The notes below the pieces were generated by a model. That model was not told the origin of the DNA and did no database searches. It saw nothing but the letters and a program-made list of their open reading frames with translations. Positions 7,450 to 29,215 of a stretch of 32,000 nt of DNA are shown one piece after another; the stretch's first letter is position 1, and every line of letters starts with the position of its first letter. This DNA is from Okeania sp. (lineage in GTDB: Bacteria; Cyanobacteriota; Cyanobacteriia; Cyanobacteriales; Microcoleaceae), in the NCBI RefSeq assembly GCF_035285525.1, contig NZ_JAYKGW010000183.1, positions 1-32,000 of the forward strand, in the 5' to 3' direction. Position numbers and translations under genes: made by a program.

Positions 7450-7865
7450 GGAGTAATTAATAGTTAACAATTAATAATTAAGGTTGACTGAAAAAATCTT
7501 TTAGTACGGGAATAGGACTCAGGATAAATGAAAATTACAAAGTAGGTAGTCAGAAGAATATTGGCTTAATTTTCATATCTAATACTACTCCATTGAGGCT
7601 CAATTTTTCCGCTTTCTCAACCGAAAAGCTAATACTTTTTCCTATTCTAAAATTTAAGCTGTCAGCTATCATCAATAAGATTTAGGGTTTATATAGCAAT
7701 CAGTTGTGATTTGCAAGAGTTTGTAATATTTTATGGTAGGGGTTTGGAAACCAAACCCCTACAGTTTTTTCTCACATCTGATTTCTGATTGTTATAGTAA
7801 GCTCTAATTTGGTGTAAATTGATAAAAATGTTATCTTAAACCAATTAATCTAGCTCAATTAATAA

Positions 7866-8111
7866 AGCTTTAAAACTTCAGTCAAAACACAATTCTGAAA
7901 ATCAGATAATAATCTGAAACTTAGGGAGTAGAGAATAGTAATTTGGCAAATAGAAAAAAAGTCAAACAACTTTACTTCAATAAAAACAATTCTCAAAATT
8001 AGATAATAATCTGAAACTTAGGGAGTAGAGAATAGTAATTTGGGAAATAGAAAAAAAGTCAAACAACTTTACTTCAATAAAAACAATTCTGAAAATCAGA
8101 TAATAATCTGA
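7866..8111. repeat. Tandem repeat, period 97 bp, about 2.3-2.5 copies, 92 bp upstream of the TVP38-family gene
   Basis: The string ACAATTCTGAAAATCAGATAATAATCTGAAACTTAGGGAGTAGAGAATAGTAATTTGG.AAATAGAAAAAAAGTCAAACAACTTTACTTCAATAAAA recurs at 7889, 7986 and 8083. Each unit holds overlapping palindromes TCTGA-aaa-TCAGA and TCAGAT-aata-ATCTGA. Confidence 0.9.
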
Positions 8112-8202
8112 TTAAAATCAACTTAAACTATTGTTTTTATGTCATCAAAATGATTATAATCTCAATCATAACTAAGATATTTTTCAAGGGAGTTAATATA
8201 TT

Positions 8203-8928
8203 ATGAACGACCTAAAACAAACCCCAAAAAAGCCAAAATTCAACAAACTACTTAAACCACTATTAATTATGTTTGGAGTTGCCACCCTTATAACTATTGC
8301 TCAGAAATTTTTTAACGTTCAAGAACTATTAAATAACGCCTTAAACTGGATTAATGAACTTGGTCATTGGGGTCCAATAGCCTTTATTACTATATACATT
8401 TTGGCTACAATTTTCTTCCTACCTGGTTCTCTAATAACCCTTGGTGCAGGTGTACTATTTGGTCCTATTTTTGGTTCAATTTATGTTTCTATTGCTTCAA
8501 CTATCGGTGCAACTTGCGCCTTCTTAGTTGGTCGATATTTAGCAAGAGGTTGGGTTTCCCAACAAATAGAAAGAAATGAACAATTTCAAGCTATAGACAA
8601 AGCTGTTGCTGATGAGGGATGGAAAATAGTTGGGCTAACTCGCTTATCCCCCATTTTTCCCTTTAACCTGCTAAACTACGCTTTTGGTGTCACTAAAGTT
8701 TCTCTACCAGACTATTTTTTGGCATCTTGGATTGGTATGATGCCAGCTACAGTAATGTATGTATATCTAGGCTCCTTGGCAGGAAGTTTAGCAACTTTAG
8801 GTACAGAAGGTCGCGAGCGGACTACAATAGAATGGGTTCTCTACGGAGTTGGTCTAGTTGCCACAGTTGCAGTAACTATTTATGTGACTAAAATTGCCAA
8901 ACAAGCTTTACAAAAGAAAATATCTTAA
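8203..8928 (+). CDS. TVP38/TMEM64 (DedA-related, SNARE-associated/VTT domain) membrane protein
   Basis: 241 aa with multiple TM segments. FLPGSLITLGAGVLFGP..G......G...G....F..GR and RL.P..PFNL.NY..G are the VTT-domain signatures. Confidence 0.85.
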   Translation: MNDLKQTPKKPKFNKLLKPLLIMFGVATLITIAQKFFNVQELLNNALNWINELGHWGPIAFITIYILATIFFLPGSLITLGAGVLFGPIFGSIYVSIASTIGATCAFLVGRYLARGWVSQQIERNEQFQAIDKAVADEGWKIVGLTRLSPIFPFNLLNYAFGVTKVSLPDYFLASWIGMMPATVMYVYLGSLAGSLATLGTEGRERTTIEWVLYGVGLVATVAVTIYVTKIAKQALQKKIS

Positions 8929-23568: not shown

Positions 23569-24858
23569 ATGCTGATTGAATTCAGTGTCGGTAACTATTT
23601 ATCTTTTAAAGAAACTGTCACCTTGAGTATGGTGGCGACAAATGTTAGTGCCAAGAATAAAAGTGTTGATGAAAATAATGTTTTTGATGTTGATGAAGAG
23701 TTAAGTTTGCTCAAAAGTGTTGCTGTTTATGGTGCTAATGCTAGTGGCAAAAGTAATTTGATTAAAGCAATGGCTTTTATGCGTTGGTTTGTGCTTAATT
23801 CATCAAAAGAAACTCAGATAGAAGATGCTATTAATGTGGAAGAGTTTAAATTAAGTACGGAGACTGAGGGAAAGCCTTCTTATTTTGAAATAGTCTTTAT
23901 TTTAGAAAATAAATTATATAGATATGGTTTTGAAGTAGATGAAAAACAGGTTATTTCTGAGTGGTTATTTTATGTACCAAAAGTAAGAGAAAGTAAGTTA
24001 TTTGAACGGGATGAAAATGGTATCAAGATTCCTACTAAGATTTTTCAAGAAGGAAAATTAATCATAGATAAGACGAGAAATAATGCACTTTTTCTTTCTG
24101 TAAATGCTCAATTTAACGGCAAAATTTCTACAAGTATTTTGCGATGGTTTATGGATTTGAATATAATTTCAGGATTACATAGTGATTTATATAAAAGAGT
24201 TACAGTTCAATATTTTCAACAACATAGTGAATATAAAAACGAGATTATTCAATTTATTAGACAATGGGATTTAGGTATTGATAATATTGAAATTGACACA
24301 ATAAATATTTTACCAGAACAATTTTCTCAAATTTATTCAGAAGAATTTAGAAAACGTATGAGCGATGTAGGAGTGCAAGCTGATGAAATTCAAACATATC
24401 ATAAAAGATATGATTCTAAAGGTAAAATAGAATCTATAGTAATATTTGATTTTGAAGAAAATGAGTCAGATGGTACTCAAAAATTATTTGCTTTTGCAGT
24501 ACCAATTTTGCAGAGTTTAAAAAATGGAGAAATTTTAATAATAGATGAACTTGATGCTAGATTACATCCCATAATTAATCGTACAATAATCGAGCTATTT
24601 AACTCTAATCAAACTAATCCTAAAAATGCTCAACTAATTTTTACAAATCATGATACTAACTTACTTAATAGTAAGATGTTCAGATTAGACCAAATATGGT
24701 TTACAGAAAAAGATCGGCAAGGAGCAACCGATTTATATTCTTTAGTTGAATATGAAATTAAAAACGAAGAAATTTTTAAAGATGATTATATTAAAGGTAG
24801 ATATGGAGCAATACCTTTTCTTGGAGATTTAACCGAATTATTTGAAAAAAATGGGTAA
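23569..24858 (+). CDS. AAA_15/AAA_21 (ABC/SMC-like) ATPase, AbiLi/RloA-like defence component
   Basis: 429 aa. FSVGNYLSFKE N-terminus, Walker A GANASGKSN, Walker B/D-loop ILIIDELDARLHP, and a C-terminal ..IKGRYGAIP tail typical of this ATPase family. Overlaps the start of an RloB-domain gene. Confidence 0.8.
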   Translation: MLIEFSVGNYLSFKETVTLSMVATNVSAKNKSVDENNVFDVDEELSLLKSVAVYGANASGKSNLIKAMAFMRWFVLNSSKETQIEDAINVEEFKLSTETEGKPSYFEIVFILENKLYRYGFEVDEKQVISEWLFYVPKVRESKLFERDENGIKIPTKIFQEGKLIIDKTRNNALFLSVNAQFNGKISTSILRWFMDLNIISGLHSDLYKRVTVQYFQQHSEYKNEIIQFIRQWDLGIDNIEIDTINILPEQFSQIYSEEFRKRMSDVGVQADEIQTYHKRYDSKGKIESIVIFDFEENESDGTQKLFAFAVPILQSLKNGEILIIDELDARLHPIINRTIIELFNSNQTNPKNAQLIFTNHDTNLLNSKMFRLDQIWFTEKDRQGATDLYSLVEYEIKNEEIFKDDYIKGRYGAIPFLGDLTELFEKNG

Positions 24859-25501
24859 AAAAAAAGCATCTGGTAAAAATCATCAAAATTCTCGGAATGA
24901 GAAAAGTAAATATGCTCGCTCAAGAAATGAAAAAGTAAAAACACGAAAAGCAAAAGAGCGTTTTTTAATAGTTTGTGAGGGCACAAAAACTGAACCAAAT
25001 TATTTTAAAAGTTTTCCTGTTCCTAAAGATGTAATTGAAGTTGATGTACTAGGTGTTGGTAAAAATACGATTAATTTAGTTGAAAAAGCTCTAAGAATCA
25101 AACAAGAAGATGGTGATTACGATAGAGTTTGGTGTGTATTTGACAAAGATTCGTTTCCACCAAAAAATTTTAATGCAGCAATAAAATATGCCGAAGATAA
25201 TAATGTTGAAGTCGCATATTCTAATCAAGCTTTTGAAGTTTGGTACTTGTTACATTTTGACGATCCTTATATCCCAAAGTCTCGCAAAGACTATGAAAAA
25301 CTTTTAACTAAAAGGATGAATCAAAAGTATGAGAAAAATAGCAATGAAATGTACAAAATGTTGCTTGATAGACAACCTCAAGCAATTAAGAATGCAGAGA
25401 AGTTATTAAAACAATATAATCCACCTAATCCTGCTAATGATAATCCTTCCACAACAGTACATTTATTAGTTAAAGAACTGAATAGATTTGTTCGTAAATA
25501 A
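24851..25501 (+). CDS. RloB-domain protein (AbiLii-like), partner of the ATPase
   Basis: ERFLIVCEGTKTEPNYFKSF ... VWCVFDKDSF ... VAYSNQAFEVWYLLHF matches the RloB family signature. ATG 24851 overlaps the ATPase stop by 8 nt. The tracked ORF uses TTG 24842. An A9 run (24857-24865) lies in codons 3-5. Confidence 0.8.
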   Translation: MGKKKASGKNHQNSRNEKSKYARSRNEKVKTRKAKERFLIVCEGTKTEPNYFKSFPVPKDVIEVDVLGVGKNTINLVEKALRIKQEDGDYDRVWCVFDKDSFPPKNFNAAIKYAEDNNVEVAYSNQAFEVWYLLHFDDPYIPKSRKDYEKLLTKRMNQKYEKNSNEMYKMLLDRQPQAIKNAEKLLKQYNPPNPANDNPSTTVHLLVKELNRFVRK

Positions 25502-25596
25502 GTGTAGCGATCGCCTTTCTCATTATTCTCTCAATTCACTTAACATTTTCATTCTCTGAGAGCTACCTATAAAAAAAATTGGAAAGAAAATAAAGC

Positions 25597-25625
25597 TTGC
25601 ATTCTCGAATCAAATCTGATAGTAT
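25597..25625 (+). promoter_or_regulatory. Promoter-like element, repeat copy 1
   Basis: TTGCAT (25597-25602), a 17-nt spacer, then TAGTAT (25620-25625). Confidence 0.45.
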
Positions 25626-25631
25626 TATGTT

Positions 25632-25740
25632 ATTGGGGTAAACTCGCCTATATACTAGACTTTTTATTCAACTCAAGAAGTAAGGACGATTTCCCATAGG
25701 GAATGCTGCGACCCAATCGCGAATCGCCCCTAGATTTTTA
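25632..25740 (+). ncRNA. Candidate sRNA, unit 1 (~109 nt; predicted from promoter and terminator only)
   Basis: The predicted TSS is ~7 nt after TAGTAT. The terminator hairpin spans 25679-25733 (arms AGTAAGGACGATT / AATCGCCCCTAG) and is followed by ATTTTTA. No ORF. Confidence 0.3.
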
Positions 25741-25920
25741 CCGTGACTAAATTTGGCAATTTTAATAATGTCCGCTGGCACTACATTTATTAGTTAAAGA
25801 ACTGAATAGATTTGTTCGTAAATAAGTGTAGCGATCGCCTTTCTCATTATTCTCTCAATTCACTTAACATTTTCATTCTCTGAGAACTACCTATAAAAAA
25901 AATCGGAAAGAAAATAAAGC

Positions 25921-25949
25921 TTGCATTCTCCAACAAAATCTGATAGTAT
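25921..25949 (+). promoter_or_regulatory. Promoter-like element, repeat copy 2
   Basis: TTGCAT (25921-25926), a 17-nt spacer, then TAGTAT (25944-25949). Confidence 0.45.
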
Positions 25950-25955
25950 TATGTT

Positions 25956-26065
25956 ATTGGGGTAAACTCGCCTATACACTAGACTTTTTATTCAATAAAA
26001 GAAGTAGGGACGATTCGCGATTGGGTAGGAGCATTCCCGTTTGCGAAATCGCCCCTAGATTTTTA
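25956..26065 (+). ncRNA. Candidate sRNA, unit 2 (~110 nt)
   Basis: Same architecture as unit 1. The hairpin spans 26003-26058 and is followed by ATTTTTA. Confidence 0.3.
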
Positions 26066-26245
26066 CCGTGACTAAATTTGGCAATTTTAATAATGTCCGC
26101 TGGCACTACATTTATTAGTTCAACAACTGAACAGATTTGTTCGTAAATAAGTTGAGCGATCGCCTTTCTCACTATTCTCTCAATTCACTTAACATTTTCA
26201 TTCTCTGAGAGCTACCTGTCAAAAAAATCGGAAAGAAAATAAAGC

Positions 26246-26274
26246 TTGCATTCTCGAATCAAATCTGATAGTAT
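26246..26274 (+). promoter_or_regulatory. Promoter-like element, repeat copy 3
   Basis: TTGCAT (26246-26251), a 17-nt spacer, then TAGTAT (26269-26274). Confidence 0.45.
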
Positions 26275-26280
26275 TATGTT

Positions 26281-26368
26281 ATTGGGGAAAACTCGCCTAT
26301 ATGCTAGACTTTTTATTCAACACAAAAAGTAGGGACGTTTCATGGAACGTCCCTACTGTGGTTTATTC
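26281..26368 (+). ncRNA. Candidate sRNA, unit 3 (~87 nt)
   Basis: Same promoter. A perfect 12-bp stem, AGTAGGGACGTT (26328-26339) / AACGTCCCTACT (26346-26357), with a 6-nt loop, followed by GTGGTTTATT. Confidence 0.3.
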
Positions 26369-26414
26369 AAATGAAAATCGCTATAAGTCATCTAACGATT
26401 TATGGCTCAAAATA

Positions 26415-26780
26415 CTATCTAGCTACAGGAAGCAATAATTCGTTGGCGGGAGCGCCCCGTGAAACTTCTTCCCACTGGGGAGCGATGGGAGCGTATTTAC
26501 AATAACAGATGACGATGCGGGTATCGGTGTCAAAACTGGCAAACTTTTCGACCCGCGTTACTATCCAATCTCCTTCTCTGGCATGAGTAATAGCATCTTG
26601 GTCGTCAGTTTTATAGGCACGAGTACGATCGCCTATTTCGGGAATCGTCGGATTTTCTTCAGCGCTCCAGTTTTCTTCTAAAATGTCAGTTAGACTTTGA
26701 CGAGGCATCAGTATTCGTTCTTCCCATCCATGTTCGCTCATACCTTCTGTTTTATAAACTATCCAGGTTTCAGTTGTCAT
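26415..26780 (-). CDS. Hypothetical protein (121 aa from ATG 26780), third gene of a three-gene operon
   Basis: MTTETWIVYKTEGMSEHGWEERILMPRQ... GAGGA lies 8 nt upstream of ATG 26780, and the ATG overlaps the stop of the preceding gene by 11 nt. By eye the GC content is higher than the surroundings. No family confidently recognised. Confidence 0.6.
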   Translation of the reverse strand: MTTETWIVYKTEGMSEHGWEERILMPRQSLTDILEENWSAEENPTIPEIGDRTRAYKTDDQDAITHAREGDWIVTRVEKFASFDTDTRIVICYCKYAPIAPQWEEVSRGAPANELLLPVAR

Positions 26781-26949
26781 AGCGGTTATCCTCAAAAGTT
26801 GTTTGTTCTCCCTCAAAGACGCAATCGACTTTGAGGATTTTGTCTTTATTTGGGCGGACTTCTACAAGTTTCCAGCCATATTTCTGCTCCATCTCCCGAC
26901 ATTTTGCGGGATCGGTGGCAGAGTGAATATTTTTGCTATTTTTAGACAT
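26770..26949 (-). CDS. Hypothetical small protein (59 aa from ATG 26949), second gene of the operon
   Basis: MSKNSKNIHSATDPAKCREMEQKYGWKLVEVRPNKDKILKVDCVFEGEQTTFEDNRYDN. It starts 6 nt after the stop of the upstream gene and overlaps the downstream gene, which indicates translational coupling. Confidence 0.5.
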   Translation of the reverse strand: MSKNSKNIHSATDPAKCREMEQKYGWKLVEVRPNKDKILKVDCVFEGEQTTFEDNRYDN

Positions 26950-26955
26950 CAAGCT

Positions 26956-27219
26956 TTATCCTACAGATAGACTGTGTGTCTGTGATTTTTTGGCGATCGC
27001 TTCCTCCTGTAGTAGCTCTTCTAACTTTGCTCTGACTTTATCCTGCCAGTTTGGAATATTTTTGATAGTTGCTAAGTCATTAGAGTCAATTCTCAATGCG
27101 AGTAAAGCTTTGTTTGGTTTCTCTGGGTTTTTGGCTTGAAAAGCATACTTAGAAATTCCTGGATTGCCTCCTGGTCTTCCAGGTCGGGAACTCTTTGCTT
27201 TGTGTTTAGTCGCGATCAT
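26956..27219 (-). CDS. Small basic protein with a predicted ribbon-helix-helix (CopG/Arc-like) layout; first gene of the operon and probable autoregulator
   Basis: 87 aa. Basic Gly/Pro-rich N-tail (KSSRPGRPGGNPGI), then a beta-strand-like ALLALRIDSND, helix LATIKNI, and helix NWQDKVRAKLEELLQEE. GAGGA lies 7 nt upstream of the ATG. The fold assignment is an inference from the residue pattern. Confidence 0.5.
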   Translation of the reverse strand: MIATKHKAKSSRPGRPGGNPGISKYAFQAKNPEKPNKALLALRIDSNDLATIKNIPNWQDKVRAKLEELLQEEAIAKKSQTHSLSVG

Positions 27220-27254
27220 TCTTTGTCCTCAATCATGTCCAATCCTTTGTTCAT

Positions 27255-27274
27255 ATTATAGCACGTTAACACGC
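27255..27274 (-). promoter_or_regulatory. Extended -10 promoter (TGcTATAAT) for the three-gene operon, with an adjacent GTTAACACGC motif (site A, 27265-27274)
   Basis: The minus strand reads GCGTGTTAACGTGCTATAAT. The -10 is ~35 nt upstream of ATG 27219. The same 10-mer recurs at 27311-27320. Confidence 0.45.
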
Positions 27275-27297
27275 AAAGAAATATTTTATATTAATGG

Positions 27298-27326
27298 TTG
27301 ACATTTATATGTTAACACGCTATGAT
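27298..27326 (+). promoter_or_regulatory. Divergent near-consensus promoter with GTTAACACGC (site B) filling the last 10 nt of its spacer
   Basis: TTGACA (27298-27303), a 17-nt spacer, then TATGAT (27321-27326). No plus-strand ORF follows. Confidence 0.45.
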
Positions 27327-27386
27327 AATAAACGTATAAATTAAGAGGCCAGCATTCAGCCGTCAGCAGTAATTGACAAAATATCA

Positions 27387-27621
27387 TTAATTTTCATAAG
27401 TTTTAGCTATTGATCCTGTTAATAATTTATGGCGCTCGGCTATTGGCAAACGAGCAATTTCTTTGAGAGATAACTGATTTTTAGAATCAACTTCAGATAG
27501 TTTCAATTTATGTTGAATAAACTGCAATATTGTCTAGCACTTCCTGTTGTTTTTCAAGTGGTAATAATTTCAGATTATCTATGATTTCTTGTTCAATATT
27601 ATTGTTTATTATTGCTGTCAT
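27387..27621 (-). pseudogene. Small antitoxin-like gene, frameshifted (235 nt)
   Basis: MTAIINNNIEQEIIDNLKLLPLEKQQEVLDNIAVYST* continues in another frame as ..FIQHKLKLSEVDSKNQLSLKEIARLPIAERHKLLTGSIAKTYEN*. A GGGAG SD precedes the ATG. The 3' end abuts a solo MITE-type end (CAGCATTCAGCCGTCAGC, ~27350-27369). Confidence 0.4.
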
Positions 27622-27637: not shown

Positions 27638-27835
27638 TCATAAAATGCGGCGATCGCTCACCCCATCTTTTACATCACATTCCCCAGAATTTTTACCTAA
27701 ATCCCAAATAGAAGGTGTTTTTTTGATGGTGGTAATAATAATTTTCCCATTTTCTTGAATAATGTCAAATTCTTGGTTTTCTCCTAACAATTCTTTAGGT
27801 ATTAATAAGCCTTCTTCTGTTGCTGTTAATTTCAT
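27638..27835 (-). CDS. AbrB/MazE/SpoVT-fold antitoxin (VapB-like), copy 1, without an intact toxin partner
   Basis: MKLTATEEGLLIPKELLGENQEFDIIQENGKIIITTIKKTPSIWDLGKN... is a paralogue of 29582-29794 and shares most residues with it. Confidence 0.65.
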   Translation of the reverse strand: MKLTATEEGLLIPKELLGENQEFDIIQENGKIIITTIKKTPSIWDLGKNSGECDVKDGVSDRRIL

Positions 27836-27902: not shown

Positions 27903-28290
27903 TTATCCCAAATTTTCAATTTCCTGTAATACATCTACCAAAGTAGGAGCATTTGAGGAAATAACATTTTCTTGACTTCCATCATCTTTATGGTGGGGAA
28001 AATTTGGTAAGTTTAGCTTTTTATGATGTTCAGTATTGTCATAGCGGAAAATCAGATTATTTGAGGCAGTCATATATTGATAGGAATACATATCGCGCTC
28101 TATTGTTAATTCTAAATCTACAAATTTTCGCACCATTAAAACAGAATTATCTAGAAACTTTATTTCCCCTCGAATCATACCTTCGCGCATCACTTCTTTG
28201 AGAGGTTATAATCTGAAAATTTTGCACTATTTCACAAGCTACTATTAAGTCGTAAAGTTGTTGGAAGTAGTCTTCAAATAACAAATTCAA
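27903..28290 (-). pseudogene. TumE-family (DUF6516) toxin-like gene with a probable N-terminal frameshift near 28195-28205
   Basis: The 96-aa ORF contains ..IRGEIKFLDNSVL...DMYSYQYM....LIFRYDNTEHHKKLNLPNFPHHKDDGSQENVISSNAPTLVDVLQEIE, which is the TumE/DUF6516 signature. The expected N-terminus (LNLLFEDYFQQLYDLIVACEIVQNFQIITSQ) is in another frame. The total of 388 nt equals 129 codons plus 1. Confidence 0.55.
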
Positions 28291-28564
28291 TATCTCCCAA
28301 TTTTTATATCTTTTCTTCGAGTCGTTTCAACATCAAAGCTTCCCCTATCCATTCATCTAATTCTAATGTTTATTCAAATTCATCATTCTCATATCGAAGC
28401 AGAAATTCTTGAGTAGGTAACTGATATTTTTATTCAAATTATAAGAGTCTTTTTTTAGTTTGAGAAATTCCCGATTTCAGGGATTTTATCCTGTCAAACC
28501 TCATCTTTTCAATCATGTTTTTTAATGATTCTGGGTCTCGACATTTAATTTTTAGTTCTGGCAT
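28274..28564 (-). pseudogene. Partner gene of the TumE-like toxin (putative antitoxin) carrying four in-frame TAA codons and no frameshift
   Basis: MPELKIKCRDPESLKNMIEKMRFDRIKSLKSGISQTKKRLL*FE*KYQLPTQEFLLRYENDEFE*TLELDEWIGEALMLKRLEEKI*KLGDIEFVI*. An AAGGAG SD lies upstream of ATG 28564. The tracked ORF 28439-28621 borrows its N-terminus from a repeat element. Confidence 0.5.
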
Positions 28565-28590
28565 ATTTATTATCTCCTTTAAAAGTAATT

Positions 28591-28759
28591 GTAGGTTGGG
28601 TTGAGGAACGAAACCCAACAATAGAAATCTCCATAAAAGAGGAAATAGGGAAGAATAATTGATAATTTATGGATAAAAATTGATTCTACTTTTTATTTTT
28701 GGAAATTTCTAATAGTAAAGCTTTGTTGGGTTGAACGATAGTGAAACCGAACTTACGGC
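28591..28759. repeat. Dispersed element GTAGGTTGGGTTGAGGAACGAAACCCAACA...TTGGGTT...ACGGC, interrupted by a nested MITE
   Basis: The left part (28591-28620) and right part (28712-28759) match the uninterrupted, reverse-oriented copy at 29475-29543. Confidence 0.7.
28622..28711. mobile_element. 90-bp MITE (TIR TAGAAATCTCCATAAAA / TTTTTGGAAATTTCTA) nested inside the element above
   Basis: It belongs to the same family as 29826-29938, with a shared core GGGAAGAATAATTGATAATTTATGGATAAAAATTGATTCTACTTTTTATTTTTGGA. Confidence 0.7.
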
Positions 28760-28804
28760 TGATAACTGATAACTTTTTAGTTAGGTTAGTAACTATATCA
28801 ATTA

Positions 28805-29215
28805 TCATGGTAACATTTTAAAGCCAGCTTGAAAAAAATGGTTATCTAAAGTTAAAGCTGTAACTATCTTTCGTTGTTTCATAATTATAAATGATAAACA
28901 ATGAGTTAGAGAATAGGATTTATCTTGATGCTTTTGAAAATATTGCCATCCTTAATTAAATAGATTTTGATCGATATTAATCAATTCTATCTCAGGACTT
29001 TCTAATAGTTGATTACCAACTTCCACTGCTTTATAATGAAGGTTTCTACTATTGAAGAAAGTTACAACTTCATCAAAAATATACGTTGTTGTTACTAAAA
29101 AAGGCTTAGATTTTACTAAAAAATTCCAATTTTCTAATACTTGTTGATGAGCGTCTTCACTTTTGATTTCTAGAGCCAAAATATAGCTAGTATCCAAAAA
29201 ATAGATTTCTTTCAT
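28805..29215 (-). pseudogene. PIN-domain VapC toxin with in-frame TAA at 28952-28954
   Basis: MKEIYFLDTSYILALE...FDEVVTFF...LFN*GWQYFQKHQDKSYSLTHCLSFIIMKQRKIVTALTLDNHFFQAGFKMLP*. The PIN acidic residues are present and the frame is preserved through the stop. Confidence 0.65.

Follow-up and report, generated by a model that had tools for sequence, protein, structure and literature searches.

We analysed a stretch of 32,000 nucleotides (nt) from Okeania sp. (positions 1 to 32,000 of contig NZ_JAYKGW010000183.1, assembly GCF_035285525.1; hereafter the window), which contains three small, consecutive minus-strand genes, P1, P2 and P3. The original prediction, made from the letters of the window, described them as an operon with a regulatory front end and as a candidate for a new toxin-antitoxin (TA)-like or anti-phage system. 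Comparison with related loci indicates that the locus is a mosaic, in which a two-gene cassette (P2-P3) that recurs in unrelated contexts among cyanobacteria appears to have been joined to the 3´ end of P1.

Anatomy of the P1-P2-P3 locus

The three genes are arranged as follows:
27219..26956, minus strand: P1, 87 amino acids (aa), ATG start
26949..26770, minus strand: P2, 59 aa from ATG, or 60 aa if the upstream in-frame TTG is used
26780..26415, minus strand: P3, 121 aa from ATG; the mechanical list of open reading frames (ORFs) gives 133 aa from TTG

The tight packing noted originally is confirmed. After the P1 stop codon TAA (26958-26956) come 6 nt (AGCTTG) and the P2 ATG, and the P3 ATG lies inside ...CGCTATGACAACTGA, with an 11-nt overlap between P2 and P3. 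All three ORFs are intact, in contrast to the neighbouring genes. The good Shine-Dalgarno sequences that had been described are present for P1 (GAGGA, 6 nt 5´) and P3 (GAGGA, 8 nt 5´) but not for P2, which has only a weak GGA within the last P1 codon. The GC content is 0.41–0.46 over 26250-27150 versus 0.27–0.35 in the flanks, in agreement with the earlier observation. P1, P2 and P3 are real genes rather than chance ORFs, because each protein has homologues elsewhere and the ratio of nonsynonymous to synonymous substitution rates (dN/dS) of P2 and P3 against five close relatives is 0.08–0.22, which indicates purifying selection. The genes very probably form one transcription unit, because a single promoter region lies 5´ of P1, no terminator lies between the genes, and a hairpin terminator follows P3:
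26357-26328, minus strand: intrinsic-terminator-like hairpin with a 12-bp stem followed by TTTTTGT, located 3´ of P3 and ending the operon

A scan of 25400-27600 against Rfam returned nothing credible.

P2-P3 as a mobile gene pair of cyanobacteria

Homologues of P3 were found in cyanobacteria only (Okeania, Prochloron, Hormoscilla, Rivularia, Nostoc, Anabaena, Dolichospermum, Lyngbya, Phormidium and Gomphosphaeria), and the P3 profile recovered only 171 clusters from 1.84 billion representative proteins. A search with a fused P2+P3 profile retrieved 501 proteins at E <= 1e-3; among the 120 of these matches that were listed, every named source is cyanobacterial, all proteins are hypothetical and none carries a Pfam domain. 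P2-like proteins are 60–72 aa and P3-like proteins 121–146 aa long; the adjacent pair Cylst_0106/Cylst_0107 of Cylindrospermum PCC 7417 is an example. P2 lies directly 5´ of P3 in most of the 42 fetched P3-anchored loci, down to 35% P3 identity. In 82 of 84 non-redundant pairs, the P3 start is −14 to +8 nt from the P2 stop. Judged from this sequence comparison, the two products almost certainly work together.

The original reader could not place the 59-aa or the 121-aa protein in a characterised family, and wider searches bear this out. Neither P2 nor P3 has a match above noise in Pfam, NCBIfam, PADLOC or PHROGs, and their family profiles have no match in the PDB sequence set. A literature search on the PCC 7120 and Cylindrospermum homologues, by accessions and by guessed asr729x locus tags, found nothing. 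In the libraries and literature searched, the two families are thus undescribed. The conserved features of the proteins are:
26770..26949, minus strand: P2 protein, 59 aa, predicted β-α-β-β, with invariant H9, C17, W26 and C43
26415..26780, minus strand: P3 protein, 121 aa, acidic, all-β, with invariant T65, H66, D71, W72 and C92-x-C94

H9, C17 and C43 of P2 are kept in at least 84 of 85 unique sequences, and H66, C92 and C94 of P3 in at least 92 of 93, with T65 and W72 also essentially invariant. These invariant Cys and His residues suggest that P2 and P3 may share a metal site. Confident AlphaFold2 models built from deep alignments show P3 as a five-stranded all-β protein (predicted local distance difference test, pLDDT, 79.9) and P2 as a β-α-β-β unit (pLDDT 80.1). 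Searched with Foldseek, the P3 model has no match with E < 0.03 in PDB or BFVD (best PDB E 0.54) and the best PDB match of the P2 model has E 0.34; TM-scores are at most 0.5 for both, that is, no significant fold match. The top matches (Atg31, chromo-barrel, ACT/TusA-like β-α-β units and small phage ORFs) were rejected as generic. A CDGSH-like assignment of the P3 CxCxxxP was also rejected, as the rest of that motif is absent.

The pair is patchily distributed and moves horizontally, with multiple copies per genome. Its surroundings vary, from ribosomal-protein operons to neighbourhoods with restriction-modification, NB-ARC/AAA or CHAT genes, and it occurs on five plasmids, including pCC7120alpha of Nostoc PCC 7120 and pANACY.05 of Anabaena cylindrica. 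All-versus-all clustering of the neighbours at 33 loci revealed no conserved third gene. The gene 5´ of the cassette shows no significant orientation bias (31 vs 21, p = 0.21), which had been examined with regard to promoterless hitch-hiking. The comparisons securely support P2-P3 as an autonomous, mobile two-gene module specific to cyanobacteria.

On pANACY.05 (20.6 kb; locus L053, 1-2704), the pair is found near a DNA methyltransferase, an ATP-binding protein, a DUF4276 gene set, a site-specific integrase, ParA and a RelE/ParE-HTH (helix-turn-helix) pair, which is a setting rich in maintenance and defence genes. One genome (loci L013 and L015) holds two P2-P3 copies, and one metagenome locus has a second pair at most 400 nt downstream of the first. 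P2-P3 has no match in the GenBank phage collection or IMG/VR. The models of PADLOC-DB 2.0 match none of P1, P2 and P3, only the neighbouring AbiLi/AbiLii. With no PADLOC, PHROG or viral-contig match for the genes, the suggested link to phage exclusion finds no support.

Regulatory genes recur beside the pair. Small ORFs within 400 nt were counted at 52 non-redundant P2-P3 loci, and 11 of the 61 located 5´ of the pair are regulators (7 ribbon-helix-helix, RHH, and 4 HTH) versus 1 of the 48 located 3´ (an RHH; Fisher p = 0.011). Rivularia-type loci have an RHH gene in the same direction as P2, with a 4-nt overlap between the two; Anabaena-type plasmids carry a divergent RHH_5 gene 5´ of the pair; and PCC 7120 has an XRE (HTH_26) gene 66 nt 5´ of it. 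By this comparison, a regulator followed by P2 and P3 is an arrangement that recurs with regulators not homologous to one another. The predicted regulatory front end therefore stands in kind, since RHH and XRE genes recur 5´ of the pair, but the specific P1-P2-P3 trio is not conserved. Two Nostocales loci (L027, 7512-7787; L030, 7530-7805) encode a conserved 91-aa protein (MDRxHYDKLSxEEKLxFLE...) from a co-directional gene 2–8 nt 5´ of P2; it has no Pfam match above threshold and may be an alternative first gene.

The two genes of the pair differ in how they persist. At least nine loci hold an intact P3 where P2 is absent, truncated, frameshifted or interrupted. Among 80 P2-anchored metagenome loci, a full P3 lies directly downstream in 72 and a partial P3 in 3, and 5 are uninformative because of a contig edge; a P2 with no trace of P3 was found in none of the 80. 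P3 also occurs in fusions. On three independent contigs, a remote P3-like domain is joined to the HTH of a HigA antitoxin (fusion P0312; TIGR02607, 78 bits vs a cutoff of 47.7), a tandem P3-P3 protein was found, and in another protein an RHH is fused to the C-terminal half of P3.

Two further observations concern such rearranged proteins. On a metagenome contig with a GC content of 55% (L055, 4001-5035), a 212-aa P3-HigA fusion is followed after 67 nt by a free 109-aa P3-like gene; the region resembles a divergent switch, and on its flanks lie a Cas3-like helicase gene and numerous small genes without annotation. In-frame deletion chimeras recur in at least two lineages (P0148, 81 aa; P0247, 109 aa; L067, 640-911), in which the N-terminal two-thirds of P2 (through CVFEGE) continue into the C-terminal third of P3 (...IVICYCxY...).

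P1 and the mosaic origin of the locus

P1 has 14 homologues, all from Okeania/Microcoleaceae. The family shares the GRPGGNP motif and a helix-like C-terminal segment. The features of P1 and of the region 5´ of it are:
26956..27219, minus strand: P1 protein, 87 aa, basic (pI 10.1), with the conserved GRPGGNP motif and the C-terminal PNWQDKVRAKLEELLQEE
27255..27263, minus strand: extended −10 element of the putative P1 promoter, TGCTATAAT, read directly; the proximal repeat abuts it
27265..27279, minus strand: proximal direct repeat, operator-like, TCTTTGCGTGTTAAC, abutting the −10 element
27311..27325, minus strand: distal direct repeat, operator-like, TCATAGCGTGTTAAC, found by repeat search

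The two direct repeats are of the TAGCGTGTTAAC type and lie 46 nt apart. They are kept (GCGTGTTAAC) in the P1 loci L043, L046 and L047, and in the most divergent P1 locus, L049, both copies are changed together to GCTTGCCTAC; such joint change is the pattern that would be expected of operators co-evolving with their repressor. The −10 core GCTATAAT is invariant in 5/5 aligned P1 loci, and the extended −10 TG has a T to A change in L049. The TGCTATAAT element is thus a putative promoter that would drive P1 and, by extension, the whole operon. P1 is probably an autoregulatory DNA-binding protein, because it is basic and has its own extended −10 promoter and two co-varying direct repeats upstream.

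P1 had been read as RHH-like, an assignment that the searches do not support. P1 has no match above noise in Pfam, NCBIfam, PADLOC or PHROGs, its family profile has no match in the PDB sequence set, a Pfam scan of all 13 family members detected no RHH, and an hhalign comparison with the genuine RHH neighbours of P2-P3 failed to match (probability 0.2). Like the RHH repressors (CopG, Arc, MetJ, omega, ParG), P1 is a small, basic protein with a basic tail at the N-terminus, and it lies behind repeated operator-like sequences that overlap its own putative promoter, and genuine RHH proteins hold its position in other P2-P3 loci. However, the P1 family has no match to any RHH model or profile, and its hallmark motifs, GRPGGNP and PNWQDKVRAKLEELL, are not RHH signatures.

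A divergent promoter-like site on the plus strand (27298-27326; TTGACA-17-TATGAT, 11/12, near consensus) coincides in part with the distal P1 repeat. At that site, two other P1 loci (L047 and L049) have a divergent gene of 393–424 aa without a Pfam domain. This gene is absent from the window, where only TA fragments lie beyond the site.

The alignments divide the locus into two segments:
26998..27328, minus strand: P1 module, comprising most of the P1 reading frame together with the promoter/operator region, 70–79% nt identity (blastn) to stand-alone P1 loci
26433..26963, minus strand: P2-P3 cassette, 85–92% nt identity (blastn) to P2-P3 loci in unrelated contexts

The cassette starts 14 nt 5´ of the P2 ATG, and its short conserved leader (...TAAATAGAATAAAGCYTGATG) gives P1 its stop codon in the window. 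The flanks of the 85–92% identical cassettes, including one from a Prochloron metagenome-assembled genome (MAG), are completely unrelated to each other. P1 stands alone, with no P2-P3 after it, in 10 fetched P1-bearing loci from four homologue clusters, and tblastn and hidden Markov model searches of the 42 fetched P3-anchored loci found P1 in none. In the loci sampled, the junction between P1 and P2-P3 is unique to this contig. From these anatomical and comparative data, the locus is a mosaic in which the P2-P3 cassette is joined to the 3´ end of P1. We have high confidence in this conclusion, as in those on gene anatomy, on the conservation and coupling of the pair, on the recurrence of regulators and on the P2/P3 asymmetry. 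The trio does not hold up as a conserved syntenic unit, because P1 and P2-P3 were together at no other locus examined, which is the very outcome that the original prediction had named as telling against it.

The Prochloron cassette lies on a scaffold of the Prochloron didemni P4 MAG (L007), where 7823-8348 aligns to 26958-26433 of the window with 92% nt identity. This value is far above what is expected between the lineages and points to either a recent horizontal transfer or a mis-binned scaffold.

As described originally, the locus is placed between an AbiL module and decayed TA genes. AbiLi/AbiLii occupy 23569-25501 (PADLOC, E = 5e-103 and 8e-35), and 27903-29215 contains the intact gene for the toxin TumE (27903-28193) together with a truncated PIN gene. 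Directly 5´ of the P1 promoter and beside the intact TumE gene, small minus-strand ORFs (27387-27621 and 27638-27835) resemble a frameshifted antitoxin-like gene in two overlapping fragments and a 65-aa ORF, with no Pfam match. Between abiLii and P3, a tandem array (25458-26341) comprises 2.7 copies of a 325-nt unit with 92% matches. Each unit contains the last ~14 abiLii codons (...LLVKELNRFVRK*), the downstream intergenic region and a hairpin, and the repeated small ORFs containing PADIIKIAKFSHGKNLGAI arise from this array. The hairpin that follows P3 sits at the edge of the array, and the terminator hairpin is perfect only in the copy adjoining P3.

Possible functions of the P2-P3 module

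We tentatively propose that P2-P3 with a regulator constitutes a tripartite TA-like module, in which P2 would be the effector and P3 the neutraliser. This reading is favoured because of the mobility of the pair, its coupling, the recurrence of regulators, the asymmetry by which P3 is the orphan, and the P3-HigA fusion. The conserved functional unit is the translationally coupled pair of P2 and P3, and the two proteins would most likely act as a complex, possibly held by the shared Cys/His metal site. In this Okeania genome, the promoter-poor cassette has been joined precisely to the 3´ end of P1, an unrelated gene whose promoter, judging from the anatomy, would now drive all three genes; with a non-homologous regulator, this repeats the RHH/XRE, P2 and P3 order of other loci. 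The role of the module could be addiction or stress/defence, with P2 as the toxic partner. P3, as the neutralising partner, could persist alone or be fused to a HigA-type DNA-binding domain, and the regulator would provide transcriptional control in trans. Two traits of type II TA systems are seen in P2-P3: adjacent, translationally coupled small genes, and a mobile, patchy distribution with orphan antitoxins and few orphan toxins, where P3 is the orphan. A third trait, a known toxin superfamily or fold, is seen in neither P2 nor P3.

In tripartite TA systems with a separate regulator, the regulator comes first, followed by two linked small genes, with all three co-transcribed and the promoter upstream of the regulator (PMC4803016). 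The omega-epsilon-zeta system of pSM19035 and paaR-paaA-parE of E. coli O157:H7 share with the present locus this layout of a regulator (putative in the case of P1) and two tightly linked genes, and they are likewise mobile, plasmid-associated and patchy; omega belongs to the RHH proteins, like the regulators beside P2-P3 in Rivularia-type and Anabaena loci. In contrast, P2 and P3 resemble epsilon/zeta and PaaA/ParE in neither sequence nor fold, with no family or fold match in either protein to the zeta (UDP-N-acetylglucosamine kinase) or ParE (RelE/ParE fold) toxins or to the epsilon/PaaA antitoxins. P1 is not demonstrably an RHH protein, and the regulator of P2-P3 is missing in ~80% of loci and non-homologous between lineages. 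The order of P2-P3 would be toxin before antitoxin. We regard the architecture as a variant of the known tripartite modules of a regulator and two genes.

The reverse-order type II TA pairs higBA and hicAB also place a small gene before a larger one (~110–145 aa). Their second protein may contain an HTH or be joined to one, as the P3-like domain of one lineage is joined to a HigA-family HTH, and it can persist as an orphan, as P3 does. However, the β-α-β-β of P2 is not the HicA fold, which resembles a double-stranded RNA-binding domain, P3 is all-β and not RNase-H-like, and P2 and P3 are both acidic. Membership in HicAB or HigBA was rejected, as the window proteins contain no HicA (PF07927), HicB, HigB or HigA domain; HigA occurs only in the remote fusion P0312.

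Several observations weigh against the TA-like proposal. P2 and P3 resemble no known toxin or antitoxin by sequence or fold, and both families are acidic (median pI 4.5 for P2 and 5.5 for P3), whereas typical RNase-type toxins are basic. A regulator adjoins the pair in only ~20% of loci, and many pairs are located directly 3´ of housekeeping genes such as rplI. Only in this genome is P1 linked to the pair, and the linkage could be an accident without functional effect. In one locus, an intact P2 stands beside a truncated P3; that P2 has substitutions at conserved positions. The P3-HigA fusion locus lacks P2 and contains a second, free P3 gene, and it is equally compatible with an antitoxin domain and with a sensor or oligomerisation domain.

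Nearly as likely as the TA-like proposal, though not probable in itself, is that P2-P3 is a non-toxic accessory module, a heteromeric Cys/His metal or redox complex (a sensor, chaperone or carrier) with a conditional role in cyanobacteria. A local regulator (P1, RHH or XRE) would set its conditional expression, with P3 as the core and P2 as a dispensable modulator. The invariant His and Cys residues of both proteins, and the invariant polar residues of P3 (T65, H66, R68, D71, W72, E78, C92 and C94), which suggest a ligand or active site, are consistent with this explanation. So are the acidity of both proteins, the many regulator-free loci beside housekeeping genes, the persistence of P3 without P2, and the lack of toxin-like homology or fold; the tandem P3-P3 and P3-HTH fusions fit a dimerising sensor domain. 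However, patchiness, horizontal movement, cassette-like boundaries, plasmids and multiple copies are more typical of selfish or defence modules, dedicated RHH/XRE regulators are enriched upstream, and no known metal-binding motif or fold was matched.

It is also unlikely that the trio is a meaningless accident of shuffling in the island, with P1 as the remnant regulator of a lost divergent gene, P2-P3 reading through from it, and the link of the pair to DNA-binding regulators no greater than chance. That the combination of P1 and P2-P3 is unique to this contig, that the apparent ancestral partner of P1, the divergent 393–424-aa gene, is absent here, and that decayed TA genes abound in the island, which also has a triplicated repeat, would all agree with such an accident. 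But non-homologous regulators are found at 11/61 upstream versus 1/48 downstream small ORFs (p = 0.011), some of them overlapping P2 by 4 nt, the three ORFs are intact, unlike their neighbours, and the join is seamless, since the cassette leader gives P1 a stop codon 6 nt before the P2 ATG and so preserves coupling.

The weakest explanation, a canonical-order type II TA with P2 as the upstream antitoxin, P3 as the downstream toxin and P1 as an additional repressor, has in its favour the gene order, sizes (~60 aa, then 120–145 aa) and translational coupling of most type II pairs, the greater overall acidity of the P2 family and the many invariant, enzyme-like polar residues of P3, but is improbable because P3 survives without P2 in at least nine loci, which should be lethal if P2 were the sole neutraliser, and, further, the P3-like domain is joined to a HigA HTH of antitoxin type, P2 is a compact β-α-β-β protein (pLDDT 80) without DNA-binding or disordered antitoxin-like features, and P3 matches no known toxin fold.

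A bolder form of the TA-like proposal, which we consider doubtful, is that P2-P3 founds an undescribed cyanobacterial TA or defence family with two new folds, P2 being the effector and P3 the neutraliser. The two would be joined by an intermolecular Cys/His clasp (H9/C17/C43 of P2 and H66/C92/C94 of P3), and the pair would be regulator-agnostic, served by RHH, XRE, HigA-fused or P1-type repressors.

The pair is present in tractable strains, on plasmid alpha of Nostoc/Anabaena PCC 7120 (BAB78377 and BAB78378, with the XRE gene BAB78376) and in Cylindrospermum PCC 7417 (Cylst_0106/0107), and the TA-like hypothesis is therefore directly testable. If P2-P3 is a TA or defence module, it would add two protein families without detectable relatives to the known repertoire and would show, as a clean natural case, how regulators are exchanged while a two-gene core stays constant. 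If it is a metal- or redox-binding heterodimer, it would represent a new small-protein complex of cyanobacteria. Either way, ~500 'hypothetical proteins' in the databases would be defined as a two-gene family.

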